In this document: one piece after another, positions 1,576-46,322 of the stretch
Numbering within the stretch: the first letter of the stretch is position 1
Layout of the letters: every line of letters begins with the position of its first letter
Source of the DNA: a virus
Virus genome (UHGV): UHGV-0042229
Length of the DNA stretch: 64,000 nucleotides
Strand: one strand, 5' to 3'
Made by a program: the position numbers and the translations under genes
The notes under the pieces: generated by a model
The model's input: the letters and a program-made list of their open reading frames with translations, nothing else
What the model was told of the DNA's origin: nothing
Databases searched by the model: none

Positions 1576-1685
1576 ATGCACTAATAAATCTATTATTTTT
1601 GTTTGATCCCTCTATAATATAGGTCAGTAATGACCGGTTTTCTCAGCCGGGCGTTATTGACCATGTCAATTCTGGAGGAGGATCA

Positions 1686-12412: not shown

Positions 12413-12533
12413 TTGACCATTGCTACCGACCGGACCACCTTAACATCCGGTCTGTATATAGACTATTTTTTACGTGCCGGAAGTCACCCTTAACTCCCTT
12501 CCGGCCCTTGCCAGACGGCACAAAGGATGCGCT

Positions 12534-15500
12534 ATGACTCATCAGACACACACTATTGCTGAATCCAATAACTTTATCGTCCTTGATAAGTACATCAAAG
12601 CTGAGCCAACAGGCGACAGCTACCAGAGCGAATCGGACCTGGAACGTGAACTGATTCAGGACCTGCGGAATCAGGGCTATGAATTTATATCCGTAAAATC
12701 TCAGTCGGCTATGCTGTCCAATGTTCGGGAACAGCTTCAGAGCCTCAATGGTGTGGTGTTTAATGACAGCGAGTGGCGGCGTTTCACGGAGCAGTATCTG
12801 GACAACCCGAGCGATGGCATTCTGGATAAAACCCGTAAAATCCATATCGACTATATCTGCGACTTTATTTTTGACGACGGGCGACTTGAGAACATCTATT
12901 TGATAGATAAAAAGAATCTCATGCGCAATAAGGTGCAGATTATCCAGCAGTTTGAACAGACGGGTTCTCATGCTAACCGTTATGACGTCACGATCCTGGT
13001 TAATGGCTTACCACTGGTACAAATCGAACTGAAAAAGCGCGGCGTGGCGATTCGTGAGGCTTTCAACCAGATACATCGTTACAGTAAAGAGAGTTTTAAC
13101 AGCGAAAATTCCCTGTTTAAGTATCTGCAACTGTTTGTCATTTCTAACGGCACCGATACCCGTTACTTTGCCAACACCACAAAGCGCGATAAAAACAGTT
13201 TTGATTTCACCATGAACTGGGCGAAATCAGACAACACGCTGATTAAAGACCTCAAAGACTTTACCGCTACCTTTTTCCAGAAACATACTCTGCTGAATGT
13301 TCTGGTGAACTACAGCGTGTTTGACAGTAGTCAGACGTTACTGGTGATGCGACCGTACCAGATTGCCGCCACCGAGCGCATTCTGTGGAAAATTAAGAGC
13401 TCCTTTACAGCGAAGAACTGGTCAAAACCGGAAAGCGGTGGGTATATCTGGCACACTACCGGTTCTGGTAAAACCCTTACCAGCTTTAAAGCCGCGCGTC
13501 TGGCAACAGAGCTGGACTTTATTGATAAAGTCTTCTTTGTGGTCGACAGAAAAGACCTCGATTACCAGACCATGAAGGAATATCAGCGTTTTTCGCCAGA
13601 CAGCGTCAACGGCTCGGAAAATACCGCAGGCCTTAAACGAAATCTGGATAAGGACGATAACAAAATTATCGTCACTACTATTCAGAAACTCAATAACCTG
13701 ATGAAAGCAGAAAGCGACCTGCCTGTATATAATCAGCAAGTGGTGTTCATATTTGATGAATGCCACCGCAGCCAGTTTGGAGAAGCGCAGAAAAACCTGA
13801 AGAAGAAATTCAAACGCTATTATCAGTTTGGTTTTACCGGCACCCCTATTTTCCCGGAAAACGCCTTAGGCTCAGAAACAACCGCCAGCGTATTTGGTCG
13901 TGAATTGCATTCGTATGTAATTACCGATGCGATTCGTGACGAAAAAGTGCTCAAATTCAAGGTGGACTACAACGATGTGCGGCCACAGTTTAAGTCTTTA
14001 GAGACAGAAACTGACGAGAAAAAACTAAGTGCGGCTGAAAATCAGCAGGCGTTTCTTCATCCCATGCGTATTCAGGAAATCACGCAATATATTCTGAATA
14101 ATTTCCGCCAGAAAACTCACCGTACCTTCCCTGGCTCAAAAGGTTTTAATGCTATGTTGGCAGTGAGCAGCGTGGATGCCGCGAAAGCCTATTATGCGAC
14201 GTTTAAACGGTTACAAGAAGAAGCCGCTAATAAATCGGCTACCTATAAACCGCTGCGTATTGCGACAATCTTCTCCTTTGCCGCCAATGAAGAACAAAAT
14301 GCCATTGGTGAAATTTCCGATGAAACTTTTGATACCAGCGCAATGGACAGCAGTGCTAAAGAGTTTCTGGACGCTGCAATTCGTGAATATAACAGCCATT
14401 TTAAAACTAACTTTAGCACCGACAGTAACGGTTTTCAGAACTACTATCGTGATTTAGCCCAGCGGGTTAAAAATCAGGATATCGATCTGCTAATTGTCGT
14501 GGGGATGTTTTTAACCGGCTTCGATGCTCCAACATTGAACACGCTATTCGTCGATAAAAACTTGCGTTTTCACGGCCTGATGCAGGCATTTTCCCGCACC
14601 AACCGTATTTATGATGCAACTAAAACCTTCGGTAATATCGTCACTTTCCGGGATCTGGAACGCTCAACTATTGATGCCATAACGCTGTTTGGTGACAAAA
14701 ACACCAAAAATGTGGTGTTAGAAAAGAGTTATACAGAGTATATGGAAGGCTTTACTGATGCTACTACTGGTGAAGCTAAACGCGGCTTCATGACAGTAGT
14801 TTCAGAACTGGAACAACGGTTCCCTGACCCTACCAGTATTGAAAGTGAAAAAGAGAAGAAAGACTTCGTTAAACTGTTTGGCGAATACCTGCGTGCCGAG
14901 AACATCCTGCAAAACTATGATGAATTTGCCACGCTAAAAGCCCTGCAACAAATCGATCTTAGCGATCCTGTTGCGGTAGAAAAATTCAAAGCAGAACATT
15001 ATGTGGATGATGAAAAGTTCGCTGAATTGCAAACAATTCGTCTCCCTGCTGATCGCAAGATTCAGGATTATCGTTCTGCCTATAACGATATTCGCGACTG
15101 GCAGCGCCGTGAGAAAGAAGCTGAGAAAAAAGAGAAATCAACCACTGACTGGGATGACGTAGTTTTTGAGGTCGATTTGCTGAAGTCTCAGGAAATAAAC
15201 CTGGATTATATCCTTGGACTGATTTTCGAACACAACAGACAAAATAAAGGCAAGGGCGAAATGATCGAAGAGGTCAAACGCTTAATTCGTTCAAGCCTAG
15301 GGAACCGTGCTAAAGAGGGCCTGGTGGTCGATTTTATTCAGCAAACGAACCTGGATGATTTACCGGACAAAGCCAGCATCATTGACGCATTCTTTACGTT
15401 TGCTCAACGCGAACAGCAACGTGAAGCAGAAGCATTGATAAAAGAAGAAAATCTCAATGAAGATGCAGCAAAACGCTATATTCGCACGTCTTTAAAACGC

Positions 15501-15650
15501 GAATATGCCACCGAAAATGGCACAGAATTAAACGAAACATTACCAAAACTTAGTCCGTTGAATCCGCAATATAAAACGAAAAAACAGGCAGTTTTCCAGA
15601 AAATCGTCTCGTTTATTGAGAAGTTTAAAGGGGTAGGCGGAAAAATATAG
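12534..15650 (+). CDS. hsdR: Type I restriction enzyme R subunit HsdR (1038 aa), EcoR124-like
   Basis: From ATG at 12534 with AAGGA RBS: [33 protein letters not shown]...; helicase motifs (TTGSGKT, DECHRSQ). Track ORF starts 20 codons upstream at GTG. Confidence 0.9.
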
Positions 15651-31542: not shown

Positions 31543-34500
31543 ATACCCAAAACGTCATGAGCTACACCTCGAGTGTCCCCCTTACAAGACACAGAACGTC
31601 TGGCAAAAAGAGGTTCCACTCTGAAGCCACTGTCATGATAAAGCTCTCTGATGTTTGGCGCGCCACTGTTAGTAATGAGAACCTTTGCACCTCGACGATG
31701 AGCATCCGTCAACAGAGACACCAGGCGTTTTTGCTCTTCAAACTTAAAGTCATGACCGGAATAGTTCGTGAATCCCTCTGTATTTGGAAGCGGTTCATAC
31801 GGCGGATCGCAAAAGATGACATCTCCTTCTCCGGCAGCTTCAATCACCGCTGCAAAATCACCGCATACAAACTCAGACCGCCCTTCCGCACCGAGGAAGG
31901 CTTCCATCTCCTGTAATGGGAAATACGGAGTTTTATACTTCCCATAACCGACATTGAACTCACCGGCCTGGTTGTAGCGCGTCAATCCGTTAAAACAATG
32001 TCGGTTCAGGAACAAAAACGCCGCTGCGCGATGTAAATCATCATAGACTTGTTTGTTAAACGCATTCCGTACTGCCAAGTATCCCTCCTGGGTGTTGTAG
32101 TCCAGGAAAAAACGATGTGCCAGAGTGATAAGTGAATGCTCCTCGCGTTGCAGAGTCTTGTAAAAGTTAATCAGGTCAGCATTCACATCATTTAGCAGAT
32201 TTTCCTGGTATCCGGCATTCATGAAGACAGCTCCGCCACCGACGAAAGGTTCAATCAGGCGCTTCCCTTCTGGCAAATAGCGAAAGATTTGTTCCAGAAC
32301 ACCAAATTTTCCACCGGCCCATTTGAATATGGACCGTTCGAATTCTGCCGCTGGTTTAACTTTTCGCTCTTTTGTTTCACTTCCTTCTTTCTGCCGACAT
32401 ACGGCCTTAGTAATCCGATCGCCAATCCAGCGCATTACTGGTATTGCCATACTATTGCCGATCGCTTTGTAACGCGGTCCGTCAGCTGCAAGCATTGCGG
32501 CCTCTTCTTCGCTTAAATCTGGATAGTGATTGTGCAGATATGCCAGTTCATCTGAATTAACTTTTTTACGCTTTTCCGTAGGGATCAACGTATGCCAATC
32601 AGGAAAACCTTGCAGCCTTTCACATTCGACAGGGGTAAGACGGCGCATTCTACCGTCGCCGAGCAATACAATTGGTGCTTCATGGTTACATGTCAAAGTT
32701 GGTGCCGAATTATCGGTTTTTATCTCAGCCCCTCCTTGCCCATGTGCCATGGCAATTATGTTTGTATCATCGCAAGTTCTGATAGCGATGTTTGAAGTAT
32801 ATCTGGTAGTTTCCTTCCCCTCGCCTCTGCTCGGCGCAATATTCCGGCGCACGCCTTCGAACTCAAAAAGTACCGTTGCGGGATCGAGGTCTGTTCGAGC
32901 ACTTGCGACAACAAACACGCGTCGGCGTCGTTGTGCCACTCCGAAGTATTGGGCATCAAGGATTCTCCAGGCCACTTTTCGCTGCGGTCCATAAATACAA
33001 CCACACTGCGGCCACTTTGGAGCATGGCAACCGGTTTTGACATCCCACCGCCAGAATGCGTTACTTTTTCCTGATTCAGGTCGATCACCTGGTTCGAATG
33101 GCGCATCTTCTCCAGCCAATCCGGCAAGGAAACATCCGAAGGCGTTATCTGCCGATGACAAGACTCCTGGGACATTTTCCCAGACGATAACGGCTGGTTT
33201 GAGAAATGACTCAGCCCGTTTGTCGTCAATTGCATTTGCAAGCTCCACATACTTTAAAGTTAGCGCGCCACGCTCATCATCAAGCCCACCACGTAATCCA
33301 GCGATACTGAATGCCTGACAGTTATGGACCACCGCACCATTGAGGATATAGGAATGATCACCTTCGACTTCTATGTTGTATACAGTATCTAGGCCTACCG
33401 ATTTAAACTCTTTGACTGTTCGTAAAAGCATTCCATGAGCCAATCTTGATTTACGTGACAATTTCTGCGGGCAGATTGTTACCTGATAATAATTCCGTTG
33501 ATTTACCACGCGATCCTCAATCACTTTTTTGGGCTTAACTTCAATAAAGCTGACCGAAGAAACATAACCACAAGTCTGTGACAACTCCGCAACGCCCCAA
33601 GCAAGCGCAGGACTAACACTATTAATTCTAAATCCCGCTTTACCACTTGGTGTCCCATCAGTATCAAGATAGCCTTGTAAAAACACATGACGCAATGGAT
33701 GCGACATAACCCATGCAGGGATACGCTTAGCATGGCTTAACTCGCCAAAATGTTCATTAAGCCAATTGGCATAACACGTATCATTCAAGGTTACTTTGAT
33801 GCTCCCTCGGATTTCGCTTGCCACGGAAAATATGTTTTCTGGTATGCGGCAATGAAACTTTCTCAATTTCTGGCAATTTATGCCAAAAACAACCGCCTTC
33901 TTAGATTTACCTCTCCATCTCCTAATATATCCATCGCCAACATAAGCGCCCGCAAGATACATAGCCTGTTCTTCAGACAAGAACCGAGAACAAATATCTG
34001 GAGATGCAATATTGAAATTAGTTAGAGCACACCATTGATATCCCGGCATATCACATGCTGCTCGCCATTCCGGTTCAGACAACAACTCTCTCTTAAAATA
34101 TGTGCCATTTTTCCGGGTGTTTTGGGCTTTCCACCGAACCGCCAGGAAGGGATGGTCATTGGTTGTTCTTATACCTAAAGGCTGCCCAACGGCATTAAGT
34201 AACCCCGTATTAGCTATTTTTGAACCAACTCTTTTTACTTGTTGTAACCGCCCGAGATGACTGACTACGTAATCGCCAGGGCAAACATCTTCTATTGGTT
34301 TATAACCATTTTTACAAAGAACCATATGCCCCGCGGTAAAACATGGTGTCCCTCCCACCAGCACATCAGGGGCTTCAATTTCTCCAGCCTGGACTTTTTG
34401 GGCGAGTTTTGTCATGTCGCCAAGGTTGGCGACATGGGGCCAGTGGTACGCAAGAACGGCAGATGGAAAAGGCTCGATTTCAGCAAACCACGCCGGACGC

Positions 34501-34574
34501 ATACCCAACGGTTCCCAGGCAATACTCGCGGCTTCAATTCCACTGCAAACAGATCCATAGCACAGCTCTTTCAC
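31533..34574 (-). CDS. dmt: Bifunctional DNA methyltransferase Dmt (C5-cytosine MTase N-domain + Dam-like N6-adenine MTase C-domain), interrupted by an in-frame intein; 1013 codons
   Basis: N-domain C5-MTase motifs (VLVGGTP|CQAFSIAG split, [16 protein letters not shown]); C-domain Dam-like ([26 protein letters not shown]). GTG start overlaps upstream gene stop. Confidence 0.85.
33321..34343 (-). mobile_element. Intein (341 codons) with LAGLIDADG homing-endonuclease domain, inserted in the PCQ motif of the Dmt C5-MTase domain
   Basis: Begins [13 protein letters not shown]... (block A Cys1), contains IRTTNDH (block B TxxH), LAGLIDADG-like [13 protein letters not shown] and [13 protein letters not shown], ends ...[11 protein letters not shown] followed by +1 Cys of CQAFSIAG. 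Residues 78-418 of the ORF; in frame, no stops. Confidence 0.8.
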
Positions 34575-35476
34575 TGCTTAGCCTCTCCGCCAAGGGCATT
34601 TACCAGAGCATCAACCAGGCACGAAATTTCACTGGTTAACAGGAAGAAATCTGCGTCCAGTCGCTGCGCAACATCTTCACTATCAATATCAGAGTTCTGC
34701 TCAAGCAATTCATCCGCAAATTTGACGCTGGTAAGGCTGAAGTTATGGTCCAGTGTAAATTTAATGCGGTTCTGCCAGTCGAGTGCCAACTTAGTGACGA
34801 GCTTGCCAGCTTCCAGGTGTGTGGAAATTTCATCGCTTCCCAAATCCTGCTTTTTCACTCGGGCAATACCGCCATCCTCAAGCACTGCCTTAAGTTCTGC
34901 CGCATCCCCCATTTGAAATCCCTGTGGAGCACTACCATCACGTACCCAGTCGGTCAGCGTTAATTCAATGGGATTTTCAACACTCAGGGGAACAACAGGA
35001 AGAGAACCAAGAGACTTACGCATAAGCGCGAGCATATCCTCTGCCTGCCGCGCGCTGGCATTGATATAGATACGTTTAGTTGAACCGTCGTAGATCGCCT
35101 GGATAACAGAAAACTTTGAAAAAGCCCGTGGCAGAAGAGAATGCAGAACTTCGTCTTTCAGGGAGTCCTTCTCTGTTTTCTTCAGTTTACGCGCTTGTTC
35201 TTGCTCAAGTTTTTCAATTTTTTCTTGAATAGCTCGCTGGATAACCGGCGGGGGAAGAATTTTTGTTTCGCGCTTTGCTTCAACAAGGATAAAACCATTT
35301 CCATGCATAGCGATAACTTCGGAATTATCACCAAATGGCGATACAAAACCGAACTTGGCCATATCCTGACTACCGCATGGCGTGAAAAGGATCATTTTCT
35401 TTTTATCTTCTAAGTCGGTCAGATCCGCCTCACGAGAAAGTTTATAAATAGTAATGTTTTTCCAGTGCTTAAACAT
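34571..35476 (-). CDS. RdgC-like recombination-associated protein (302 aa from ATG at 35476)
   Basis: [17 protein letters not shown]...[17 protein letters not shown]...[27 protein letters not shown]... resembles E. coli RdgC; position matches P1 hrdC upstream of dmt. Track ORF extends upstream to 35590. Confidence 0.8.
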
Positions 35477-35825
35477 GTTGTAACCCTTGAATATCAACCA
35501 CAGAAAGCTCGTCTTTGTAGAAAAAGGCCAGGTTGTGGCACCCCCTCGTTTGAGCGTATGAGCTGGGACCAATTTCGTTCTTCCAGACAAATGGCTTCAA
35601 ATCCGTACGGCGAAGCATAAAAACGCGATTTGTTCCGCTCTGATTCCCAATGAGGCAAAAGCCTTCTTTCACCTTGATAGCCTGCAAGTTGTCGAGTTCA
35701 CCGCTGGTTACACGGCTATCGAACTCCTTGCGGCTTATTAGCTCCATCTGCATCTGACGACTCCAAACAAATGCCCATTGAAGGGCGATGGCTGAATGGT
35801 ACCGAAAATACGACATAAAAAACAA
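35469..35825 (-). CDS. Hypothetical protein (up to 118 aa) between operator and rdgC-like gene
   Basis: ORF track; start uncertain (several in-frame Met). Confidence 0.4.
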
Positions 35826-35841
35826 TATTTATTAGAGCAAT
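35825..35841 (-). promoter_or_regulatory. C1 operator-like site upstream of the rdgC-dmt operon
   Basis: atatttattagagcaat, 16/17 to reverse-complement consensus. Confidence 0.6.
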
Positions 35842-35922
35842 TTTGCAATAGTTGAACTCCATGTAGACCACAAACAACCTGAGTTAAAATAACGAAAATC
35901 AGAGCAAATAATTGGTGATAAC

Positions 35923-36207
35923 GTGGCAAGTATTGCAACAAAAGACAGCATTTGTTCGGGGCACGGAGGATTCCCATCCAGGCCTCCTGTAGAGAGTGAA
36001 GCACTACTTAAAGTCAACGGAGTCGAAGTGTTAGTTGATGGTAAGCAATATGCACAGCATACCGATGGAAACAGTACGCACGGTGGGCAAGCTATATCAA
36101 CCAGGGCATGGTTTACCGTCAATGGTAAAGGGATCGTATGCGTTGGTGACCCTGTTTCATGCGGATCTACCGTAGCGTCCGGAGACGGCCTGGTTCAGGT
36201 AAGTTAG
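35923..36207 (+). CDS. PAAR-like protein (94 aa, GTG start)
   Basis: Repeated xHGG / GD motifs (CSGHGGF..., THGGQAIS..., VCVGDPVSCGS...) typical of PAAR spike-tip proteins. Confidence 0.45.
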   Translation: MASIATKDSICSGHGGFPSRPPVESEALLKVNGVEVLVDGKQYAQHTDGNSTHGGQAISTRAWFTVNGKGIVCVGDPVSCGSTVASGDGLVQVS

Positions 36208-36215
36208 GAGATATC

Positions 36216-37004
36216 ATGCTGGAAAAAGACTACCAGTTATCCGCATATAAAAAATTGGCCGCCGCCGGTGGGATGAAAACACCTGGTGCCATAACATCGG
36301 CACGAAACAGTGCTAACACAGCAAAACTGCTTGCAGAAGAATTGACCGGATTAATTCTGGATACAATTGTCTATCCCGACACTATTACCAGCTATGTTTC
36401 AACGATCAGAACAACCACAACCGGCTTAACGAACATTGGAGAACTGGCAACTAAGCACGCGGACCTGTTGGCTGGTTATGCAGATCTGTCAATGCTGCTT
36501 CAACTCGATATTGGTTGGGATGTTTACTGCCGTGCTAATGAGCGAGAAGTATCAGAACTGCCGATCTCTATTGCCATTGGTGACGCGACTACAACGAAAT
36601 CGCTTGAGGACGCTGTAAATGCGCTTAATGCGTCGAGTTTAGTCGCTGCTATGGGTGACGTTAACCAGACCCTTAACACAGGCTCAGGAAGCTCGTCAGG
36701 CTCTGATTCAGGTGGCGGCGCAGTCACTCCCCCACCAGCACTGACAGAACAACAAGTTGAAGCACTGAAGGAAGCTACTGAACAATTTGGTGCTTTTTTC
36801 GACCAGACAACAGTACCGGTAGCAGCATTGCAACAGCAGTATGAACGAGCGAAGGAAAGCGCCAGCGTAGCCATAACTGCTTATAACCATGCTATCGGAA
36901 CCGCGCTGGCGGAAGCATCAGCAAATAAGGCCAGCACCGCCAGCGCAGTCGCAGCTTTGGTTCCTGATTCTGTTCTTGATGAATTAAACAAGGCGACACT
37001 TTAA
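36216..37004 (+). CDS. Hypothetical protein (262 aa from ATG with AGGAG RBS)
   Basis: Track ORF 36159-37004 trimmed to MLEKDYQL...; Ser/Gly-rich linker, Ala-rich C-terminus. Confidence 0.5.
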   Translation: MLEKDYQLSAYKKLAAAGGMKTPGAITSARNSANTAKLLAEELTGLILDTIVYPDTITSYVSTIRTTTTGLTNIGELATKHADLLAGYADLSMLLQLDIGWDVYCRANEREVSELPISIAIGDATTTKSLEDAVNALNASSLVAAMGDVNQTLNTGSGSSSGSDSGGGAVTPPPALTEQQVEALKEATEQFGAFFDQTTVPVAALQQQYERAKESASVAITAYNHAIGTALAEASANKASTASAVAALVPDSVLDELNKATL

Positions 37005-37043
37005 CAAAGGACTTCACAGATAATTTTTCTTCAGGAGGAAGAA

Positions 37044-37466
37044 ATGTCGTTTTTTTCAACGTTAAAAACAGCTTTGTCTTTGAAGGAGAAACTTGCTGTT
37101 ACTGGTGTTCTTGTCCTGATTTGCGCACTTGTTGGTGCTGGGTTTGCATGGGAACGTTATCAGTTAAAGCAAGCCTTGGAAAAAATTGGCAGCCTTGATC
37201 AGGCTGTTAAGGAGCGCGATAAGTCAATCATTGATCTTAACCAGACCATTGAGACGATGAATAAAGCGGATCAACATTTTCACAGCCAGGAAGTGAAAAA
37301 TGAATCAGAACAAGCGAAGTATGCAGACAGACAAATGGAACGAAAAGCTGAAGTTCAGAAACAACTGGTTGCGTCGGGTAGTGTTCGCCAGCGCATTCCT
37401 GTTGACACTCAGCGGTTGCTCCGGGAGTCGATCAGCGAATTTAACGCCGACGCCGACAAAGGTTAA
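37044..37466 (+). CDS. i-spanin-like protein (140 aa): N-terminal TM helix plus coiled-coil
   Basis: TM LAVTGVLVLICALVGAGFAW followed by charged coiled-coil region; 3' end overlapped out of frame by a lipoprotein ORF. Confidence 0.45.
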   Translation: MSFFSTLKTALSLKEKLAVTGVLVLICALVGAGFAWERYQLKQALEKIGSLDQAVKERDKSIIDLNQTIETMNKADQHFHSQEVKNESEQAKYADRQMERKAEVQKQLVASGSVRQRIPVDTQRLLRESISEFNADADKG

Positions 37467-37632
37467 TCACCCTGCCCCCAAAAGTGCATTTATGTGCAGG
37501 ATGCCAGAGTTTAGCAGTGAATATTTTGATGATCTGCCAGCCTATATCCTTGATACAGAAACGATGCTGATGGGGATTAACAGGAAGAATCGCAACGTTA
37601 ATGATTACAACCGCGCTATCAGCGGTAACTAA
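37300..37632 (+). CDS. o-spanin-like lipoprotein, overlapping the i-spanin-like gene (start uncertain)
   Basis: Signal peptide with lipobox LLTLSGC, mature part Pro/Thr-rich; overlaps 37044-37466 in the +1 frame. Confidence 0.4.
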   Translation: MNQNKRSMQTDKWNEKLKFRNNWLRRVVFASAFLLTLSGCSGSRSANLTPTPTKVNHPAPKSAFMCRMPEFSSEYFDDLPAYILDTETMLMGINRKNRNVNDYNRAISGN

Positions 37633-37643
37633 AAGGGATTTTT

Positions 37644-38036
37644 ATGTCTGATAAAGTAACAGTAAAGCAAACTATCAACAAAGCGACTTCAATCTACAAA
37701 ATTGAGCAAATCACTGTTGGCAAGCCAGGATCTGAACAATACCGTCGTGCTTTCGAGCTTGCCGATCAGCTTGGTTTAAAACACCCGGATTGCATTGAGC
37801 ATGTATTTCCGACCTATGCTGATGAGCAATGTACTCATGTTCTTACCGAAGAGGATTTTTTCTGCACTGAAGAACGAGAAGGAGTTGATCGCTGCATTGG
37901 TGTGATTTGCTCTTCAGTGAGTTATGAGTTATTCCCTAATGTCCATGAAGATGGTGGTGTTGGATACCAATTCCTGTACGAAGGCGATGAGCTTAAATGT
38001 TATGAACATGGTCTTCTTATCGAAAGCGTAGAATAA
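37644..38036 (+). CDS. Hypothetical protein (130 aa)
   Basis: ORF track; followed by hairpin aaccggc/gccggtt at 38050-38070. Confidence 0.5.
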   Translation: MSDKVTVKQTINKATSIYKIEQITVGKPGSEQYRRAFELADQLGLKHPDCIEHVFPTYADEQCTHVLTEEDFFCTEEREGVDRCIGVICSSVSYELFPNVHEDGGVGYQFLYEGDELKCYEHGLLIESVE

Positions 38037-38078
38037 TACCCTTCCTTCCAACCGGCTATGTTGGCCGGTTTATTCAAC

Positions 38079-38186
38079 TTATCCACAGCATAGATCCAAT
38101 AAACAGATCCTAAAGAGAACCTAGGAAGATCCAAAGAAGATCCCGGATCGCTGTAAGCCGCGTCATTACTGGCCTGAAATGGGATC
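38079..38186. other. oriR: Plasmid origin oriR core: DnaA box plus GATC cluster
   Basis: Perfect DnaA box TTATCCACA at 38079-38087; six GATC at 38093, 38106, 38128, 38139, 38146, 38183 (four as AGATCC); directly upstream of iterons and repA. Confidence 0.65.
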
Positions 38187-38190
38187 AACA

Positions 38191-38294
38191 TTGACTATAC
38201 GCGATTTTATGTTGACTGTGCACGATTTATTGTTGACTGCACGCGATTTATTGTTGACTATACGCGACAGAAACATTGACTGTAAGCGATTTTA
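38191..38294 (+). repeat. Five direct iterons (origin-proximal array, incC-like)
   Basis: Starts 38191, 38212, 38233, 38254, 38276 (21-22 bp period): TTGACTATACGCGA, TTGACTGTGCACGA, TTGACTGCACGCGA, TTGACTATACGCGA, TTGACTGTAAGCGA. Confidence 0.8.
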
Positions 38295-38370
38295 GAGTCT
38301 GAATATTCACAGCTGTTGATAACAGCCATCCAAATTGACGTCAGGCCGCGCCACACATGGAGAAACCGTG

Positions 38371-39255
38371 ATGCCGGAAGAAAGTAAAGGCTTCCTTAGC
38401 GTTGAAGAAGTTGCAGGAAATACAGGAGAAATCCACAGCCTGAAGCCCAATAACAACAGCACTATACAACCCATCGCTTTGTTGCGCTTAGGTGTGTTTG
38501 TGCCAACCTTAAAATCTACCAATGTGGCGCTACGTCGCGGATCGTCAGTTACAACAAACACAACGAACGCAACTGAAGAACTATCAAGCCTCAAAATTGT
38601 TGAGCAGGAAGGCTATGAGGGAATTGAAATTCATGGTCCACGCCTGGATATGGATACTGATTTTAAGGTGTGGGTGGGCATAACCTCCGCGTTGTTTGAC
38701 TACGCACCTGATGATGACGGCATAATCACCCTGCCATTCTCCGAGTTTGCCGATCGATGCGGCTATCCACGTAAGCGCCTTTCAAAGGCGTTCCGTAAAA
38801 GTATTGATGACTCTCTGACACGCATTCAGCAGACAGTTGTCAAATTCCGCTTCCCGGCGGCAAAAGGTCATCTCAATAACATTAACGTCAACTTGTTGGC
38901 ATATAGCAGCCTGAATACCGAGCTTGATGTTATCGAGATCCAGCCGCAGAAACAGCTATCTGAACTTTACTATGTTGACTATAAGCGAATCCTGAAGCTG
39001 AAGATGCTGGATAAACTAGGGCGCAAAGAGACGGCCAAGGTACTGTATACATTCTTTGAGGCTCTACCCGCCAACCCGGCACCTGTCAGCATTGAGCGCC
39101 TTAGAGCGAGGCTTAATCTCAAATCATCCGTTAGCGTGCAAAATAGCGTTATCAGAAAAGCCATGAAAGATTTGGAAGCTATTGAATATCTTAAATTTTC
39201 AGAGATAAAAAACGGCAGGAAAATCGGCTTCCAGATCCATAAGCGCAATCCATAA
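38371..39255 (+). CDS. repA: Replication initiator RepA (iteron-binding)
   Basis: From ATG at 38371 with GGAG RBS; shares blocks with my recollection of P1 RepA (TIQPIALLRLGVFVP, GPRLDMDTDFKVWVG, VLYTFFEALPANPAPVSIERLRARL) but overall diverged; flanked by iteron arrays. Confidence 0.85.
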   Translation: MPEESKGFLSVEEVAGNTGEIHSLKPNNNSTIQPIALLRLGVFVPTLKSTNVALRRGSSVTTNTTNATEELSSLKIVEQEGYEGIEIHGPRLDMDTDFKVWVGITSALFDYAPDDDGIITLPFSEFADRCGYPRKRLSKAFRKSIDDSLTRIQQTVVKFRFPAAKGHLNNINVNLLAYSSLNTELDVIEIQPQKQLSELYYVDYKRILKLKMLDKLGRKETAKVLYTFFEALPANPAPVSIERLRARLNLKSSVSVQNSVIRKAMKDLEAIEYLKFSEIKNGRKIGFQIHKRNP

Positions 39256-39257
39256 TA

Positions 39258-39512
39258 TTGACTATATGCGATAGCGAGAAGTTGACTATAGGCGACATTC
39301 GTTGACGCTGGTGGATTTTTGCTGGCGTCAATATTCTGCAAGTCGCTATTGAGATGGCTTTTAGGGGCATTTCATCGCGTATAGTCAACGTTTCTCCCGA
39401 CAATATCTTACATAGTCGATCTTTGGTGGAGTTAAATCGACTACAGTCAACTTTTGACTGTAGTCACATCGCGCATAGTCAACTATTCACATTAACCTTC
39501 GCGCATAGTCAA
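39258..39512. repeat. Iteron array downstream of repA (incA-like), both orientations
   Basis: About nine copies of TTGACTAT(A/G)(T/G)GCGA / TCGCG(C/T)ATAGTCAA, e.g. 39258, 39282, 39376 (rev), 39437 (rev), 39454, 39471 (rev), 39501 (rev). Confidence 0.75.
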
Positions 39513-39547
39513 CATTTGCGCGGTTCTCATCAAGCAGTGGTATTGAT

Positions 39548-40357
39548 ATGCAAGAAGAGAAACAACACTACCTCTACGTTCTGGTGCCAGAGAACGGAGA
39601 TACTTTTAAAATCGGCATTTCATGTGGTCCATTGGCACGGTTTAAAGGGCTACAAGTGAGTCCCGATTTTGCGCTTTCACGGGTCTATCGTGGTACGCGT
39701 TTGGTAATGGTTAATCTTGAGCGGGCTTTACACGCAACCTTTTTCCCCTGGAATGCGCCGTGGGAGAAAAGCGTCGGTGGCGGGCATACTGAATGGTTTA
39801 CACGAGAGTGTCTTGATAAGGTTTTGGCTCATATCGAATATCTAAATGATATGTGGGGAGGGATTCTCGAGCGCATTAAGTCGAATGATTTACTTCAGCG
39901 TCCAGTAGATGCTGCTTGCTCTTTCGAAAAAGAGCTGGATGTTACTTCTATCGTGACTTTCAAAGATGACGCAGGAATGAGGGACGTGGCTTATGTCTCC
40001 ATATCTGGCTATGAACCGGACGCGATCCGCGCTCAATGTGAATTGCTGAAAGCAATGTTTATGCTTCGGACTAAATATCCCTGGGATACAGGGCGGGTGT
40101 GCTTCCCTATGGAAGAGTTAACCGCCACCATTGATTCCCAGCTTTACCACGATAATCCAGAGAAGTTTTTTAGCCTTTTAGCCGGTAATGGGCTTAACTG
40201 TGTGTCCGGGCTGGGGCGAAGTAGAATCCAACATGCCTCGCTCTTCGGTCCCTTCTTTTACGATCGACACGGGTACTTTGAGGCTGAACTTCCGGCGCTT
40301 ACGCGTGCTATAGATACTATCGATTTCGAACGATTATTCGCTGCTCTTAGCAAATAA
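39548..40357 (+). CDS. T5orf172 (GIY-YIG-like) domain protein (269 aa)
   Basis: N-terminal HYLYVLVPENGDTFKIGIS...RFKGLQV...GGGHTEWF pattern of the T5orf172 domain; about 170 aa C-terminal region of unknown function; own terminator. Confidence 0.6.
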   Translation: MQEEKQHYLYVLVPENGDTFKIGISCGPLARFKGLQVSPDFALSRVYRGTRLVMVNLERALHATFFPWNAPWEKSVGGGHTEWFTRECLDKVLAHIEYLNDMWGGILERIKSNDLLQRPVDAACSFEKELDVTSIVTFKDDAGMRDVAYVSISGYEPDAIRAQCELLKAMFMLRTKYPWDTGRVCFPMEELTATIDSQLYHDNPEKFFSLLAGNGLNCVSGLGRSRIQHASLFGPFFYDRHGYFEAELPALTRAIDTIDFERLFAALSK

Positions 40358-40364
40358 CACTGAT

Positions 40365-40385
40365 GCCCCTGAACGGGGCTTTTTT
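40365..40385 (+). terminator. Rho-independent terminator after the T5orf172 gene
   Basis: gcccc-tgaac-ggggc followed by T6. Confidence 0.75.
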
Positions 40386-40469
40386 GTGCCCTCCTTGTAA
40401 CTCTCAATCGTGCAAAATGAACCAAACATGCAGAGAATGCTATGTACAAGCATCTACGCATACATTATT

Positions 40470-40515
40470 ATTTTATGCAGCATTTTTAATTAAATTCAAA
40501 AATACAGCATAAAGG
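40470..40515 (+). promoter_or_regulatory. Putative par promoter/operator (imperfect inverted repeat)
   Basis: ttttatgcagcattttt-aattaaattc-aaaaatacagcataaa directly upstream of parA. Confidence 0.4.
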
Positions 40516-40525
40516 ATGACTTTCG

Positions 40526-41722
40526 ATGAGTGATTCCAGCCAGCTTCACAAGGTTGCTCAAAGAGCAAATAGAATGCTCAATGTTCTGACTGAACAAGTA
40601 CAGTTGCAAAAGGATGAGCTACACGCGAACGAGTTTTACCAGGTCTATGCGAAAGCGGCACTGGCAAAATTGCCTCTACTGACTCGTGCGAACGTTGACT
40701 ATGCCGTAAGTGAAATGGAAGAAAAGGGTTATGTTTTCGATAAACGCCCTGCTGGCTCTTCAATGAAATATGCGATGTCAATTCAGAACATCATTGACAT
40801 ATATGAACATCGCGGAGTGCCAAAATACCGGGATCGCTACAGCGAAGCGTATGTGATTTTCATCTCCAATCTTAAAGGCGGTGTGTCAAAAACTGTATCG
40901 ACGGTTTCTCTGGCGCATGCAATGCGTGCCCACCCTCATCTTCTGATGGAAGATTTAAGGATTCTGGTTATTGACCTTGATCCGCAATCTTCAGCAACGA
41001 TGTTTTTAAGCCATAAACACTCTATTGGTATCGTAAACGCAACATCTGCACAGGCTATGTTGCAGAATGTAAGCCGTGAAGAGCTGTTAGAGGAGTTTAT
41101 TGTTCCTTCTGTTGTACCTGGGGTTGACGTTATGCCTGCGTCGATTGACGATGCCTTTATTGCATCCGATTGGAGAGAGCTGTGCAATGAGCATCTACCG
41201 GGTCAGAACATCCATGCTGTCCTGAAAGAGAATGTGATTGATAAGCTGAAGAGCGATTATGACTTTATCCTCGTTGATAGTGGTCCTCACCTTGACGCCT
41301 TCCTGAAAAATGCTTTGGCCTCGGCCAATATACTGTTTACACCTCTGCCGCCTGCAACGGTTGATTTCCACTCATCGCTTAAATACGTTGCCCGCCTTCC
41401 TGAGTTGGTGAAACTCATTTCGGATGAAGGCTGCGAGTGTCAGCTTGCAACTAACATTGGTTTTATGTCCAAGTTGAGTAACAAGGCAGACCATAAGTAT
41501 TGCCATAGCCTGGCTAAAGAAGTGTTCGGTGGGGATATGCTTGATGTTGTCCTCCCTCGCCTTGACGGTTTTGAACGCTGCGGCGAGTCTTTTGACACTG
41601 TTATTTCAGCTAACCCGGCAACGTATGTTGGTAGTGCTGATGCATTGAAGAACGCGCGAATTGCTGCGGAAGATTTTGCTAAAGCAGTTTTTGACCGTAT
41701 TGAATTTATCAGATCTAACTGA
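40526..41722 (+). CDS. parA: Partition ATPase ParA (398 aa)
   Basis: Starts MSDSSQLHKVAQRANRMLNVLTEQVQLQKDELHANEFYQVYAKAAL...; Walker A ISNLKGGVSKT; recognised as P1 ParA. Confidence 0.95.
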   Translation: MSDSSQLHKVAQRANRMLNVLTEQVQLQKDELHANEFYQVYAKAALAKLPLLTRANVDYAVSEMEEKGYVFDKRPAGSSMKYAMSIQNIIDIYEHRGVPKYRDRYSEAYVIFISNLKGGVSKTVSTVSLAHAMRAHPHLLMEDLRILVIDLDPQSSATMFLSHKHSIGIVNATSAQAMLQNVSREELLEEFIVPSVVPGVDVMPASIDDAFIASDWRELCNEHLPGQNIHAVLKENVIDKLKSDYDFILVDSGPHLDAFLKNALASANILFTPLPPATVDFHSSLKYVARLPELVKLISDEGCECQLATNIGFMSKLSNKADHKYCHSLAKEVFGGDMLDVVLPRLDGFERCGESFDTVISANPATYVGSADALKNARIAAEDFAKAVFDRIEFIRSN

Positions 41723-41738
41723 GGAGTAAGAAACCCCC

Positions 41739-42740
41739 ATGTCAAAGAAAAACAGACCAACAATTGGGCGAACCCTTAATCCTTCAATATTAAGCGGATT
41801 TGATAGTTCTTCAGCCTCTGGCGATCGAGTCGAGCAGGTATTCAAGTTATCAACTGGTCGCCAGGCCACATTTATTGAAGAGGTAATACCTCCGAACCAG
41901 GTAGAAAGCGATACCTTTGTTGATCAGCATAACAACGGGCGTGACCAGGCATCTCTTACGCCAAAATCATTAAAAAGTATCCGAAGCACTATTAAGCATC
42001 AGCAATTTTACCCTGCAATAGGTGTCAGACGGGCTACAGGGAAAATTGAAATTTTGGATGGTTCCCGGCGTCGAGCTTCTGCCATCTTAGAGAACGTAGG
42101 GTTGCGGGTTTTAGTCACGGACCAGGAGATCAGCGTTCAGGAAGCGCAAAATTTAGCGAAAGACGTTCAGACAGCATTGCAGCACAGCATTCGAGAAATA
42201 GGTCTGCGTTTGATGCGAATGAAAAATGATGGGATGAGTCAGAAGGATATTGCAGCCAAAGAAGGGCTGTCTCAGGCGAAGGTCACGCGTGCTCTCCAGG
42301 CAGCGAGTGCTCCGGAAGAATTAGTCGCCCTTTTCCCTGTGCAGTCGGAATTAACCTTTTCGGACTACAAAACGCTTTGTGCTGTTGGCGACGAAATGGG
42401 GAACAAGAATTTAGAGTTTGATCAGCTTATTCAAAACATATCCCCGGAAATAAACGACATCTTATCCATTGAAGAAATGGCCGAAGATGAAGTTAAAAAT
42501 AAAATCCTGCGCTTGATAACAAAGGAAGCCTCACTACTCACGGATAAAGGTTCTAAAGATAAGTCCGTAGTTACTGAATTATGGAAATTTGAGGACAAGG
42601 ATCGCTTTGCAAGGAAGCGCGTGAAAGGCCGTGCATTTTCTTATGAGTTTAATCGACTTTCAAAAGAGCTACAGGAAGAACTCGACAGGATGATTGGGCA
42701 TATCCTTAGAAAGAGCCTCGATAAAAAGCCGAAGCCTTAA
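41739..42740 (+). CDS. parB: Centromere-binding protein ParB (333 aa)
   Basis: 333-aa ORF downstream of parA followed by parS boxes. Confidence 0.93.
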   Translation: MSKKNRPTIGRTLNPSILSGFDSSSASGDRVEQVFKLSTGRQATFIEEVIPPNQVESDTFVDQHNNGRDQASLTPKSLKSIRSTIKHQQFYPAIGVRRATGKIEILDGSRRRASAILENVGLRVLVTDQEISVQEAQNLAKDVQTALQHSIREIGLRLMRMKNDGMSQKDIAAKEGLSQAKVTRALQAASAPEELVALFPVQSELTFSDYKTLCAVGDEMGNKNLEFDQLIQNISPEINDILSIEEMAEDEVKNKILRLITKEASLLTDKGSKDKSVVTELWKFEDKDRFARKRVKGRAFSYEFNRLSKELQEELDRMIGHILRKSLDKKPKP

Positions 42741-42743
42741 ACT

Positions 42744-42830
42744 TTCGCCATTTAAATTTCACTATTAACCTACTGTTTTTAAAGTAAATCCCTCTAAAAT
42801 TTCAAGGTGAAATCGCCACGATTTCACCTT
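42744..42830. other. parS: parS centromere (boxA heptamers / boxB hexamers)
   Basis: TCGCCA at 42746 and 42813; ATTTCAC / ATTTCAA / inverted GTGAAAT at 42756, 42799, 42806, 42822 around an AT-rich IHF-like region. Confidence 0.7.
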
Positions 42831-42890
42831 GGATTTTACCTTCCTCCCCTACTCCCGAAAAAAATAAAAAAATTGCTTGTCACGAGAAAG

Positions 42891-42914
42891 TCAACAAGTG
42901 ACTTTCAATAAAAT
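42891..42914 (+). promoter_or_regulatory. Late-promoter-like motif upstream of the head/tail operon
   Basis: tcaacaagtgac-tttcaa-TAAAAT; box has internal inverted repeat aagtca/tgactt. Confidence 0.5.
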
Positions 42915-42965
42915 CTCTTCCGAAAAGGGATTCACACAAGTGCCTTGTGTTTAAGGAAGAGTAAA

Positions 42966-44672
42966 TTGAGTAACTTACGCGAATACCAGAATCGTATTGC
43001 AGATATCGCAAAACGCTCTAAAGCTGTGCTTGGCTGGGCAAGCACTGCGCAGTTCGGTACTGATAACCAATTCATTAAAGATGATGCCGCGCGTGCCGCA
43101 TCTATCCTTGAAGCTGCACGTAAAGACCCGGTTTTTGCGGGTATCTCTGATAATGCCACCGCTCAAATCGCTACAGCGTGGGCAAGTGCACTGGCTGACT
43201 ACGCCGCAGCACATAAATCTATGCCGCGTCCGGAAATTCTGGCCTCCTGCCACCAGACGCTGGAAAACTGCCTGATTGAGTCCACCCGCAATAGCATGGA
43301 TGCCACTAATAAAGCGATGCTGGAATCCGTCGCAGCAGAGATGATGAGCGTTTCTGACGGTGTTATGCGTCTGCCTTTATTCCTCGCGATGATCCTGCCT
43401 GTTCAGTTGGGGGCCGCTACCGCTGATGCGTGTACCTTCATTCCGGTTACGCGTGACCAGTCAGACATCTATGAAGTCTTTAACGTGGCAGGTTCCTCTT
43501 TTGGTTCTTATGCTGCTGGTGATGTTCTGGACATGCAATCCGTCGGGGTGTACAGCCAGTTACGCCGCCGCTATGTGCTGGTGGCAAGCTCCGATGGCAC
43601 CAGCAAAACCGCAACCTTCAAGATGGAAGACTTCGAAGGCCAGAATGTACCAATCCGAAAAGGTCGCACTAACATCTACGTTAACCGTATTAAGTCTGTT
43701 GTTGATAACGGTTCCGGCAGCCTACTTCACTCGTTTACTAATGCTGCTGGTGAGCAAATCACTGTTACCTGCTCTCTGAACTACAACATTGGTCAGATTG
43801 CCCTGTCGTTCTCCAAAGCGCCGGATAAAGGCACTGAGATCGCAATTGAGACGGAAATCAATATTGAAGCCGCTCCTGAGCTGATCCCGCTGATCAACCA
43901 CGAAATGAAGAAATACACCCTGTTCCCAAGTCAGTTCGTTATCGCGGCTGAGCACACGGTACAGGCGGCGTATGAAGCACAGCGTGAATTTGGTCTGGAC
44001 CTGGGGTCCCTACAGTTCCGCACCCTGAAGGAATACCTGTCTCATGAACAGGATATGCTGCGTCTTCGCATCATGATCTGGCGCACTCTTGCGACCGACA
44101 CCTTTGACATCGCTCTGCCGGTTAACCAGTCCTTTGATGTATGGGCAACCATCATTCGTGGCAAATTCCAGACTGTATATCGCGACATTATTGAGCGCGT
44201 TAAATCTTCTGGTGCGATGGGGATGTTTGCTGGTGCTGATGCAGCATCTTTCTTCAAACAGTTGCCGAAGGATTTCTTCCAGCCAGCCGAAGACTATATC
44301 CAGACTCCGTATGTTCACTACATCGGTACCCTGTTCGGTAACGTGAAAGTGTACGAAGTACCTGCTGGTATTTGTAAGAACTTAACGACAGAGAACATTC
44401 AGTTCAGCTCGATGGATGTGCTGTGCTACGTCCGTGATGAAAATCCGGGTAAAGCAGGCTTCGTGACTGGTGATGCTGTCCCGGCCATCCCGTTCCAGCA
44501 TCCGACCACTCCGGCGCTGGTCAACCGTACCACGCTGTGGGGTTCGGCTATCAACGATATGCACCCACGCAACGGCGCTGATTACTTCACTCGTGTAACG
44601 CTGACAATGGCCAAAAAAGGCGGGCTTAACTTCATAAGCGGCGACACGATTGATGCCGGTGACTCTGAGTAA
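42966..44672 (+). CDS. Putative major head protein, gene 23-like (569 aa from TTG; track ORF starts at 42945)
   Basis: Large late ORF adjacent to parS as P1 gene 23; AGGAAG RBS 5 nt before TTG at 42966. Confidence 0.55.
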   Translation: MSNLREYQNRIADIAKRSKAVLGWASTAQFGTDNQFIKDDAARAASILEAARKDPVFAGISDNATAQIATAWASALADYAAAHKSMPRPEILASCHQTLENCLIESTRNSMDATNKAMLESVAAEMMSVSDGVMRLPLFLAMILPVQLGAATADACTFIPVTRDQSDIYEVFNVAGSSFGSYAAGDVLDMQSVGVYSQLRRRYVLVASSDGTSKTATFKMEDFEGQNVPIRKGRTNIYVNRIKSVVDNGSGSLLHSFTNAAGEQITVTCSLNYNIGQIALSFSKAPDKGTEIAIETEINIEAAPELIPLINHEMKKYTLFPSQFVIAAEHTVQAAYEAQREFGLDLGSLQFRTLKEYLSHEQDMLRLRIMIWRTLATDTFDIALPVNQSFDVWATIIRGKFQTVYRDIIERVKSSGAMGMFAGADAASFFKQLPKDFFQPAEDYIQTPYVHYIGTLFGNVKVYEVPAGICKNLTTENIQFSSMDVLCYVRDENPGKAGFVTGDAVPAIPFQHPTTPALVNRTTLWGSAINDMHPRNGADYFTRVTLTMAKKGGLNFISGDTIDAGDSE

Positions 44673-44732
44673 TCAGGGGAAGTTCTCCGTTTAACATAGC
44701 GCCCCCGTGCGGGGCGCATAACAGGGAAAGTT

Positions 44733-46322
44733 ATGTCTCAATATTCAATTCAACAGTCATTAGGTAATGCATCCGGCGTCGCGGTTAGCCCGATCAATGC
44801 CGATGCGACGTTATCTACCGGTGTTGCATTAAATAGCAGCTTGTGGGCTGGTATTGGCGTATTTGCGCGTGGCAAGCCGTTTACTGTTCTGGCGGTTACT
44901 GAGTCCAATTACGAAGATGTTCTCGGCGAACCGCTGAAGCCGTCTTCCGGCTCACAGTTCGAACCAATTCGTCATGTGTACGAAGCTATTCAGCAAACGT
45001 CTGGTTATGTTGTTCGTGCTGTTCCGGATGATGCGAAGTTCCCGATTATTATGTTCGATGAATCAGGCGAACCGGCTTACAGTGCGTTGCCATACGGTTC
45101 TGAAATTGAACTTGATAGTGGCGAAGCCTTTGCTATCTACGTTGATGATGGTGATCCGTGTATTTCACCTACCCGTGAGTTAACCATCGAAACGGCAACA
45201 GCGGATAGCGCGGGTAATGAACGCTTCCTCTTAAAACTGACCCAGACGACTTCGCTCGGCGTGGTAACGACCCTGGAGACACACACTGTATCTTTGGCGG
45301 AAGAAGCGAAAGATGACATGGGCCGCTTGTGTTATCTGCCTACGGCTCTGGAAGCCCGTTCTAAATATCTGCGCGCGGTTGTTAATGAAGAGCTGATTTC
45401 GACGGCGAAAGTAACAAATAAAAAATCGCTGGCGTTCACTGGTGGTACCAACGGTGATCAGTCGAAAATCTCAACCGCTGCGTACCTACGTGCGGTTAAA
45501 GTGCTGAATAATGCGCCGTACATGTACACCGCTGTTCTTGGCCTGGGCTGCTATGACAATGCGGCTATCACCGCATTAGGTAAAATCTGTGCAGATCGCC
45601 TGATTGATGGCTTCTTTGATGTCAAACCGACATTGACGTACACGGAAGCGATCTCTGCTGTTGAAGATACCGGTTTACTTGGTACCGATTATGTAAGCTG
45701 TGCTGTCTATCACTTCCCGTTCTCCTGCAAAGACAAATGGACCCAATCCCGTGTGGTCTTCGGTCTGTCTGGCGCGGCGTATGCGGCGAAAGCTCGCGGC
45801 GTCAAGAAAAACTCTGATGTCGGCGGTTGGCATTACTCACCGGCTGGTGAAGAACGTGCCGTCATTGCTCGTGCGTCAATTCAACCGCTGTATCCGGAAG
45901 ATACCCCGGACGAAGAAGCAATGGTCAAGGGCCGTCTCAATAAAGTATCTGTTGGCACCTCTGGCCAGATGATCATCGACGATGCTTTAACTTGCTGCAC
46001 GCAGGATAACTATCTGCACTTCCAGCACGTCCCATCCCTGATGAATGCAATCAGCCGTTTCTTTGTCCAGTTAGCCCGACAGATGAAGCATAGCCCGGAC
46101 GGTATTACTGCGGCTGGCCTGACTAAAGGGATGACCAAACTTTTAGATCGCTTTGTCGCCTCCGGCGCTCTGGTGGCTCCTCGTGATCCTGATGCTGACG
46201 GTACAGAACCGTATGTGCTGAAAGTTACGCAGGCGGAATTCGATAAATGGGAAGTAGTCTGGGCCTGCTGCCCGACTGGCGTAGCCCGTCGTATCCAGGG
46301 CGTACCGCTGCTTATTAAGTAA
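44733..46322 (+). CDS. Putative tail sheath protein, gene 22-like (529 aa)
   Basis: Second large late ORF; size and position consistent with contractile-tail sheath; GC-rich hairpin 44699-44717 upstream. Confidence 0.5.
   Translation: MSQYSIQQSLGNASGVAVSPINADATLSTGVALNSSLWAGIGVFARGKPFTVLAVTESNYEDVLGEPLKPSSGSQFEPIRHVYEAIQQTSGYVVRAVPDDAKFPIIMFDESGEPAYSALPYGSEIELDSGEAFAIYVDDGDPCISPTRELTIETATADSAGNERFLLKLTQTTSLGVVTTLETHTVSLAEEAKDDMGRLCYLPTALEARSKYLRAVVNEELISTAKVTNKKSLAFTGGTNGDQSKISTAAYLRAVKVLNNAPYMYTAVLGLGCYDNAAITALGKICADRLIDGFFDVKPTLTYTEAISAVEDTGLLGTDYVSCAVYHFPFSCKDKWTQSRVVFGLSGAAYAAKARGVKKNSDVGGWHYSPAGEERAVIARASIQPLYPEDTPDEEAMVKGRLNKVSVGTSGQMIIDDALTCCTQDNYLHFQHVPSLMNAISRFFVQLARQMKHSPDGITAAGLTKGMTKLLDRFVASGALVAPRDPDADGTEPYVLKVTQAEFDKWEVVWACCPTGVARRIQGVPLLIK

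Follow-up and report, generated by a model that had tools for sequence, protein, structure and literature searches.

P1-like phage-plasmids have been described with replicons of the IncY type, as in P1 and P7, and of the p0111 type. JL22 was reported as a P1 in which repA (p0111) and an unknown gene, gp57, stand in place of repA (IncY), and among the 55 P1-like elements compared in that work 31 were IncY and 24 were p0111 (PMC9603915). In Salmonella, 132 p0111 elements were counted against 94 IncY, with 17 replicon-type changes inferred on the phage-plasmid core-gene tree and AP010962.1 given as the p0111 reference (PMC11165635), and the RepA of SJ46 was found to be 42% identical to P1 RepA (PMC5241659). 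The sequence analysed here, UHGV virus genome UHGV-0042229 (64,000 nucleotides, referred to below as the window), can be identified with high confidence as a P1-like (Punavirus) phage-plasmid, whose maintenance region is a mosaic of a p0111-type replication cassette and a P1-type parA-parB-parS partition module. No evidence contradicting this identification was found. The feature is the already described and very common p0111 replicon of P1-like phage-plasmids, and the finding is real but ordinary; the exact junctions, the conservation as DNA of an iteron inside repA and the linkage of a T5orf172 gene to the replicon are new, minor details.

Alignment of the window with the P1 reference genome (NC_005856) gave DNA homology across 34341-38173 (96% identity) and 40424-44932 (99.2%), separated by a blastn break from 38174 to 40423 in which the sole P1-alignable DNA was a segment of 59 nt in repA encoding the LDMDTDFK motif. 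On the left side the junction took the form of a gradient, with identity to P1 falling from 100% in the middle of upfA to 88-94% at its 3′ end and then to 79%, 72% and 60% through the part of the origin that contains the DnaA boxes and GATC sites, and with no homology from the first iteron onwards. The right junction (40424..40525, + strand) was sharp, identity rising from 53% to 100% at about 40424-40430, 19 nt before the site that corresponds to the −35 hexamer of Ppar in P1, after which the par promoter and operator follow as in P1. Between these junctions a cassette of 2,250 bp, comprising five direct iterons, repA, bidirectional downstream iterons and an extra T5orf172/GIY-YIG-like gene, stands in place of 1,491 bp of P1. 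The initial annotation had proposed a replicon swap, and this proposal is supported by flanks that are 96-99% identical to P1, by a 2.25-kb core that, the 59-nt segment aside, is without P1 DNA homology, by the sharp edge at 40424, by the extra gene and by the presence of a related replicon in a non-P1 context (L005, described below).

The partition module (ParABS type Ia) that follows the cassette is identified by its sequence as P1-specific and not P7-like. The product of parA (40526..41722, + strand) is identical to P1 ParA at 397 of 398 residues (99.7%) and 57% identical to P7 ParA, and that of parB (41739..42740, + strand) matches P1 ParB at all 333 of 333 residues, with 40% identity to P7 ParB. 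In parS (42745..42827, + strand), the incB determinant, all six annotated box A/box B ParB sites are identical to P1; alignment against the P1 annotation showed five substitutions, two in the IHF site and three in spacers. ParA had been read in the initial annotation as essentially P1 ParA and parA-parB-parS as P1-type, and both readings were borne out. The RefSeq ParA and ParB of RCS47 (L008, 7027-9241) are 100% identical to the products of window 40526-42740. RCS47 ParA/ParB have been relayed as P7-type (PMC5241659), a statement that is in conflict with these records because they match P1, and P7 at just 57% and 40%.

The cassette matched known p0111 elements. The 1.6-kb locus that includes the origin, repA and the iterons is 97.9-99.8% identical at the DNA level to phi456, SJ46, JL22, RCS47 and Ro157c2YLVW, with 98.3% to JL22 and SJ46 and 97.9% to RCS47, with a few single-nucleotide polymorphisms, and more than 500 PLSDB plasmids carry it at 95% identity or above. 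At the protein level, 392 PLSDB records have a RepA of 99% identity or more, a handful have one of 80-99% and all others fall below 50% (IncFIB-type), and the PLSDB carriers of p0111 RepA are plasmids of roughly 80-100 kb. Of 5,426 complete genomes of E. coli, 415 carried p0111 repA, and 410 of its 418 places were on plasmids. This wide occurrence on plasmids, in both PLSDB and E. coli, indicates that the replicon is sufficient for plasmid life. One p0111-type P1-like plasmid, pQ502 (NZ_CP127257.1), carries the MOB-suite typing 'IncHI1B' in PLSDB, which looks like an artefact. No description of the iteron anatomy, the junctions or the intragenic iteron was found in PMC11165635 or PMC5241659, and PMC6906374 contains one generic mention of iterons.

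Sequence reading and a regular-expression scan located a pair of DnaA boxes at the start of the origin (38070..38087, + strand), consisting of a degenerate TTATTCAAC followed by a perfect TTATCCACA at 38079-38087. The pair aligns to the annotated DnaA site of P1 oriR and is kept in two related replicons that were used for comparison, one on L004, a more diverged P1-like contig, and the other, L005 (5690-7140), on a 91-kb contig of E. coli GCA_013513435.1. Downstream of the boxes is a cluster of six GATC (Dam) sites (38093..38186, no strand assigned), four of them inside AGATCC heptamers; this is the sole 100-nt stretch with at least five GATC in the 64-kb window, against a background of 4.0 per kb. 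The DnaA-box/GATC part, at which host factors would act, is homologous to P1 oriR with about 60-79% identity, and the equivalent module of PhiR41_1, an SSU5-like phage, is 83% identical to it over 110 nt. Five direct, incC-like iterons follow (38185..38295, + strand), with cores at 38191, 38212, 38233, 38254 and 38276 and therefore spacings of 21, 21, 21 and 22 bp. Their consensus is aaatG TTGACT R T R c G CGA Ttt, with the core TTGACTRTRCGCGA, and their number and spacing are conserved in L004 and L005; when they were aligned to the P1 iterons, no similarity was found. An inverted DnaA-box-like site (38313..38323, − strand), TTATCAACAG, lies between the last upstream iteron and repA, and in the alignment its counterpart in both L004 and L005 is a perfect TTATCCACAG.

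Downstream of the repA coding sequence is an incA-like array (39252..39518, both strands) made up of two strong copies and one variant on the + strand followed by four strong copies and one degenerate copy on the − strand. The strong copies, called with a position-weight matrix, are at 39258(+), 39282(+), 39375(−), 39437(−), 39469(−) and 39499(−); the variant at 39302 (+ strand), TTGACGCTGGTGGA, is conserved in relatives, and the decayed copy lies at about 39411 (− strand). The array thus holds eight copies, or nine if an overlapping + strand copy at 39454 is counted, in agreement with the approximately nine bidirectional iterons of the initial annotation. A further iteron, GTTGACTATAAGCGAAT, was found within the repA coding sequence (38974..38990, + strand), where it encodes V-D-Y-K-R and scores 23.4 with the matrix.

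The iterons are well separated from background. A search with the 14-mer TTGACTATACGCGA, allowing up to 3 mismatches, gave 14 matches in the window, 13 of them within 38191-39512, compared with 4.6 ± 2.1 matches per window in shuffled sequence, and none of 100 shuffles reached 14. Twelve of the 13 matches in this interval score as iterons, and the thirteenth, at 38535 (− strand), scores just 9.2. With the position-weight matrix, which was built from the 12 strong copies, those copies scored 23-31 bits and the best site elsewhere in the window 14.5. The P1 architecture described in the initial annotation (DnaA box, GATC cluster, five direct iterons, repA and bidirectional iterons) is therefore present and non-random, and its statement that the iteron core, TTGACT(A/G)T(A/G)CGCGA, differs from that of P1 is accurate, as no alignment to P1 was obtained across the iterons.

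Three-way alignments of the window with L004 and L005 showed the iterons as conserved islands among spacers that have drifted, and since the RepA proteins of these replicons are 84-85% identical, this pattern argues that the iterons are under selection. The intragenic iteron stood out in the same comparison. Overall three-way nucleotide identity across repA is 63.5%, and degenerate codons whose amino acid is conserved are identical in all three genes in 25% of cases; the longest perfect three-way run in repA is 38974-38990, the iteron itself. Identity of this run despite the low identity of the gene as a whole points to selection on the DNA itself. The site is probably a functional RepA site, and it may act as a third, extra RepA control site with no annotated counterpart in P1.

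The repA gene (38371..39255, + strand) encodes a protein of 294 amino acids, predicted to be a p0111-type iteron-binding initiator, and is preceded by a GGAG Shine-Dalgarno sequence at 38359-38362, eight bases before the ATG. The protein is 100% identical to RCS47 RepA. Against P1 RepA, identity was 42% in local alignment (BLASTP, E 9e-71) and 39.5% in global alignment, with the same value against P7 RepA, so that the divergence of RepA from P1 recorded in the initial annotation is confirmed and near-identity to P1 was found for neither RepA nor the iterons. RepA passes the Pfam threshold for Rep3_C (27.3 bits, cut-off 21.1), matches PHROG 775 at 2.6e-134 and corresponds to proteins labelled 'RepFIB replication protein A' in GenBank; in an NCBIfam scan, neither this protein, nor P1 RepA, nor the T5orf172 protein had a match. 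An AlphaFold2 model of RepA, based on 26 homologues, had a predicted local distance difference test score (pLDDT) of 73, with the first 70 residues disordered. When this model was compared with the PDB using Foldseek, the top matches were all iteron initiators, with probability 0.9-1.0: RctB domains 2-3 (E 1.5e-7), RepE (1.9e-6), pi (5.6e-4), the pPS10 RepA WH1 domain (3e-3) and TrfA (1e-2). On the basis of the Pfam matches and this model, RepA is assigned to the two-winged-helix (Rep_3, WH1-WH2) family of iteron initiators, with iteron binding and initiation as predicted functions.

By analogy with the established mechanisms of P1 and RepFIB, the locus would be an iteron replicon of the P1/RepFIB family that is complete in itself. 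DnaA from the host would bind the box or boxes at 38070-38087, and the Dam-methylated GATC heptamers, through Dam and SeqA, would serve as a region of methylation-dependent opening and sequestration. RepA monomers would then bind the five direct iterons and bring about origin opening. As these iterons immediately precede repA, the protein presumably represses its own gene as well. The downstream array would act by RepA titration and by pairing with the origin (handcuffing), keeping copy number low as incA does in P1, and the intragenic iteron would probably join in both titration and handcuffing.

Several observations weigh against the identification of the locus or against this account of its working. 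The p0111 label was reached through JL22, RCS47 and the published work and not through the PlasmidFinder reference AP010962. The Pfam Rep3_N match of RepA, at 22.0 bits, is marginal, falling 0.4 bit short of the cut-off of 22.4, and searches of PDB sequences, whether with the single RepA sequence or with a profile of 21 sequences, returned noise only and no relative, so the fold assignment depends on a model of medium confidence. A scan for sigma-70 consensus among the iterons gave no convincing + strand match for a repA promoter; each iteron starts with TTGACT, a near-consensus −35, but a good −10 partner was not found, and autoregulation is proposed by analogy with P1.

With a RepA/iteron specificity that appears unrelated to that of P1, replication control should be orthogonal to P1 (IncY), and incA/incC-type incompatibility should be lost; typing schemes separate p0111 from IncY because iterons and RepA differ. 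ParB-parS is the incB partition-incompatibility determinant of P1, and because ParB and the parS boxes are identical to those of P1, partition-mediated incompatibility with P1 should remain. The different incompatibility specificity suggested in the initial annotation thus stands as an expectation for replication control and does not extend to partition, nor does it sit well with the rarity of co-residence.

Co-residence was estimated by inclusion-exclusion over the 5,426 E. coli genomes. P1 (IncY) repA was present in 359 genomes, and either it or p0111 repA in 772, which, with the 415 p0111 genomes, leaves both in 2. About 27.5 would be expected under independence (Poisson P(≤2) ~5e-10), although the genomes are not phylogenetically independent and the extent of the depletion should be taken as approximate. 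The two repA types never share a record (775 = 415 + 360 records). A probe spanning the junction (40150-40750) was intact in 411 genomes, and 153 more matched the P1-par half alone, their matches beginning at the same breakpoint (query base 275-278). Almost every p0111 element therefore carries P1-type par, as do, it appears, about 40% of IncY elements, assuming that the 153 par-half genomes are IncY. For the other IncY genomes, about 206 on the same assumption, approximately 16 co-residences would be expected; as these are expected even without P1-type par, the exclusion probably also reflects other shared functions. The C1 immunity region (window 968-2536), which has 95.9% DNA identity to P1, is a candidate for such a function. 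It has been suggested that the IncY and p0111 types should be compatible (PMC11165635, introduction), and the rarity of co-residence fits badly with that suggestion. For those who assume p0111/IncY compatibility, this result indicates that a differing replicon type alone does not predict coexistence.

The slot between the control array and the par promoter, in which P1 has no gene, is occupied by the T5orf172 gene (39548..40357, + strand). It encodes 269 amino acids, with a T5orf172 (GIY-YIG-like) domain at the N-terminus and a C-terminal half that is uncharacterised, and is followed by an intrinsic-terminator-like hairpin (40365..40385, + strand), GCCCCTGAACGGGGC and then TTTTTT. The protein matches Pfam T5orf172 over residues 8-85 (26.5 bits, cut-off 20), PHROG 2876 (unknown function) from end to end and, at its N-terminus, PHROG 681 'endonuclease' (E 4.8e-9), and residues of the GIY-YIG-type motif are conserved; in relatives the gene is named 'gp57' or 'GIY-YIG nuclease family protein'. 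It occupies the same position in RCS47, with 97% identity, and 401 PLSDB records contain it, none below 90% identity, compared with about 398 PLSDB records for p0111 RepA. In PLSDB, in the E. coli genomes and in a search of 5.8 billion proteins, the gene was met only together with p0111 RepA. The single distant homologue in that search, at 44% identity, was the gene that fills this slot in L004, and with window-L004 identities of 84% for RepA and 89% for ParA the T5orf172 gene evolves much faster than its neighbours. It is dispensable for replication, because L005 has the replicon without the gene.

The AlphaFold2 model of the T5orf172 protein, built from a 3-sequence alignment, was poor (pLDDT 62), its best Foldseek matches, Rep WH1 domains, were non-significant (E 0.08-0.5), and a PDB sequence search with the protein found nothing. 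Profile-profile comparison with the RepA family also came out negative (probability 0.4%), and no Rep-like DNA-binding domain is proposed. It is improbable, in our estimation, that the protein is the cassette's functional nuclease, directed against the IncY replicon or a co-resident P1-like plasmid in homing or plasmid competition. If true, such a role would explain the linkage of the gene to the replicon, its fast divergence, the frequent replicon switches and the near absence of co-residence even where the partition systems should differ.

Among the 5.8 billion proteins, the nearest RepA outside this group is 53% identical (Proteus mirabilis), followed by hundreds at 44-49%, and no RepA homologue was found between 53% and 85% identity; PhiR41_1 RepA is 45% identical. 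The window replicon is best read from these sequences as one lineage of the P1/RepFIB initiator family, in which the host-factor module is family-wide and the iterons are lineage-specific, and this division accounts for the left-hand homology gradient against P1. Two relatives bear on how the cassette came to its present position. In L004, RepA is 84%, ParA 89%, ParB 67% and the T5orf172 homologue 44% identical to the window proteins, and the cassette in the same slot indicates a long association with P1-like backbones. In L005, RepA is 85% identical, the iteron is TTGACTATGTGCGA and the origin layout is the same, in a non-P1 context: the replicon adjoins large genes with Big_2-like domains, with no adjacent par or T5orf172 gene. 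The L005 context was searched for in the phage collection as a possible donor, and no match was found.

A swap is preferred to divergence in place because of the sharp right edge, the extra gene, the equidistance of RepA from P1 and IncFIB RepA, and the existence of the replicon outside P1-like elements. The cassette would have been exchanged by recombination, with the exchange running on the left side across the conserved upfA 3′ end and into the homologous, host-factor portion of the origin, and stopping on the right at a constant position, 19 nt before the par promoter. The direction of the exchange is a separate matter. The p0111-type cassette could be the older resident, with classical P1 and P7 (IncY) as the recipients of the swap, as the occurrence of both a related RepA and a T5orf172 homologue in the slot of so diverged an element as L004 would suggest. 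We consider this possible though rather unlikely, given that the data lack polarity, that RepA of 85% identity is also found outside P1-like elements in L005, and that IncY repA has likewise been reported on non-phage plasmids (bioRxiv 10.1101/2025.09.12.675607).

A second alternative makes the spread of the cassette active, the T5orf172/GIY-YIG-like protein, as a nuclease, cutting the IncY allele, or else a P1-like plasmid in the same cell, with the result that repair copies the cassette in or the rival is lost. The strict linkage of the gene to p0111 repA (with 411 of the 415 E. coli genomes sharing the same junction), its location at the sharp recombination edge, its fast evolution with conserved motif residues, the frequency of replicon switching (PMC11165635) and the near absence of co-resident replicon types are all in line with such a process, but we give it little credence. 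Neither the nuclease activity nor a target site has support, the structure model is of low confidence, L005 carries the replicon without the gene, ordinary homologous recombination between flanks 96-99% identical suffices for switching, and the shared parS, together with a C1 immunity region like that of P1 (~96% DNA identity), offers a simpler account of mutual exclusion. Divergence of the P1 replicon in place, by accelerated co-evolution of initiator and sites and with no swap at all, is very improbable: the architecture does match P1 element for element and the DnaA-box/GATC part has kept 60-79% identity, but the core lacks DNA homology between nearly identical flanks and ends at a sharp right edge, an 810-bp gene has been added, RepA is no nearer to P1 RepA (40-42%) than to IncFIB/SSU5 RepA (44-49%), no intermediates at 53-85% identity were found among the 5.8 billion proteins, the replicon also occurs in the non-P1 context of L005, and both types are found in closely related phage-plasmid backbones with the approximately 17 inferred switches (PMC11165635).

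Elsewhere in the window, further departures from P1 were observed. In the dmt/hrdC region, 32646-32829 and 33321-34359 were unaligned to P1 by megablast, with flanks that are 96-98% identical. A type I restriction-modification locus (9580-15650), comprising hsdM, hsdS and an EcoR124-like hsdR, is present in place of the P1 pmgT-humD variable region, and its hsdM is split into two overlapping open reading frames (9580-10374 and 10371-11141) by either a frameshift or a sequencing error. Between c1 and pacB, the window has a 1.7-kb insertion relative to P1 (2570-4131, − strand) that encodes an antirepressor with ORF6N and ANT/KilAC domains together with an Ash-family protein; a similar insertion has been mentioned for other P1-like plasmids (Venturini et al., PMC6906374).

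The practical value of these results lies in typing and surveillance, as P1-like phage-plasmids carry resistance genes, those for extended-spectrum beta-lactamases among them, and are detected through the two markers IncY and p0111. The junctions, the iteron map and the intragenic iteron should be useful for building and testing a p0111 miniplasmid, and the understanding of iteron replicons is unchanged.

Compared with the IncY replicons of P1 and P7, the window replicon has the same order of elements, with DnaA box(es), Dam GATC heptamers, five direct iterons spaced by 21 bp, a repA of about 290 codons and a downstream array, and the layout of that array mirrors incA, in which three copies in one orientation, that of the origin, are followed by six inverted copies (P7 annotation). 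The two replicons occupy the same genome position, between upfA and parA, and their RepA proteins are homologous. Unlike P1, the window replicon has a RepA of only about 40% identity, an intragenic iteron and an extra T5orf172 gene with its terminator before the par promoter, and its TTGACTRTRCGCGA iterons are unrelated to the GATGTGTGCTGGAGGGAAA-type 19-mer of P1. The RepA proteins of IncFIB plasmids (F-like and Klebsiella plasmids) and of the SSU5 group are 44-49% identical to window RepA over the full length but have a C-terminal extension, at 330-364 amino acids compared with 294 in the window. Origins of the SSU5-group/RepFIB kind share the DnaA-box and GATC module followed by direct iterons, and those of PhiR41_1 differ from the window iterons, being of ATGCTGTCAGCGG type. 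Compared with the described p0111 elements RCS47, SJ46, JL22 and phi456, no difference of substance was found: RCS47 encodes the same RepA, ParA and ParB (100% identity), the T5orf172 gene is in the same place, and among p0111 elements in E. coli the junction to P1-type parA is identical in 411 genomes.

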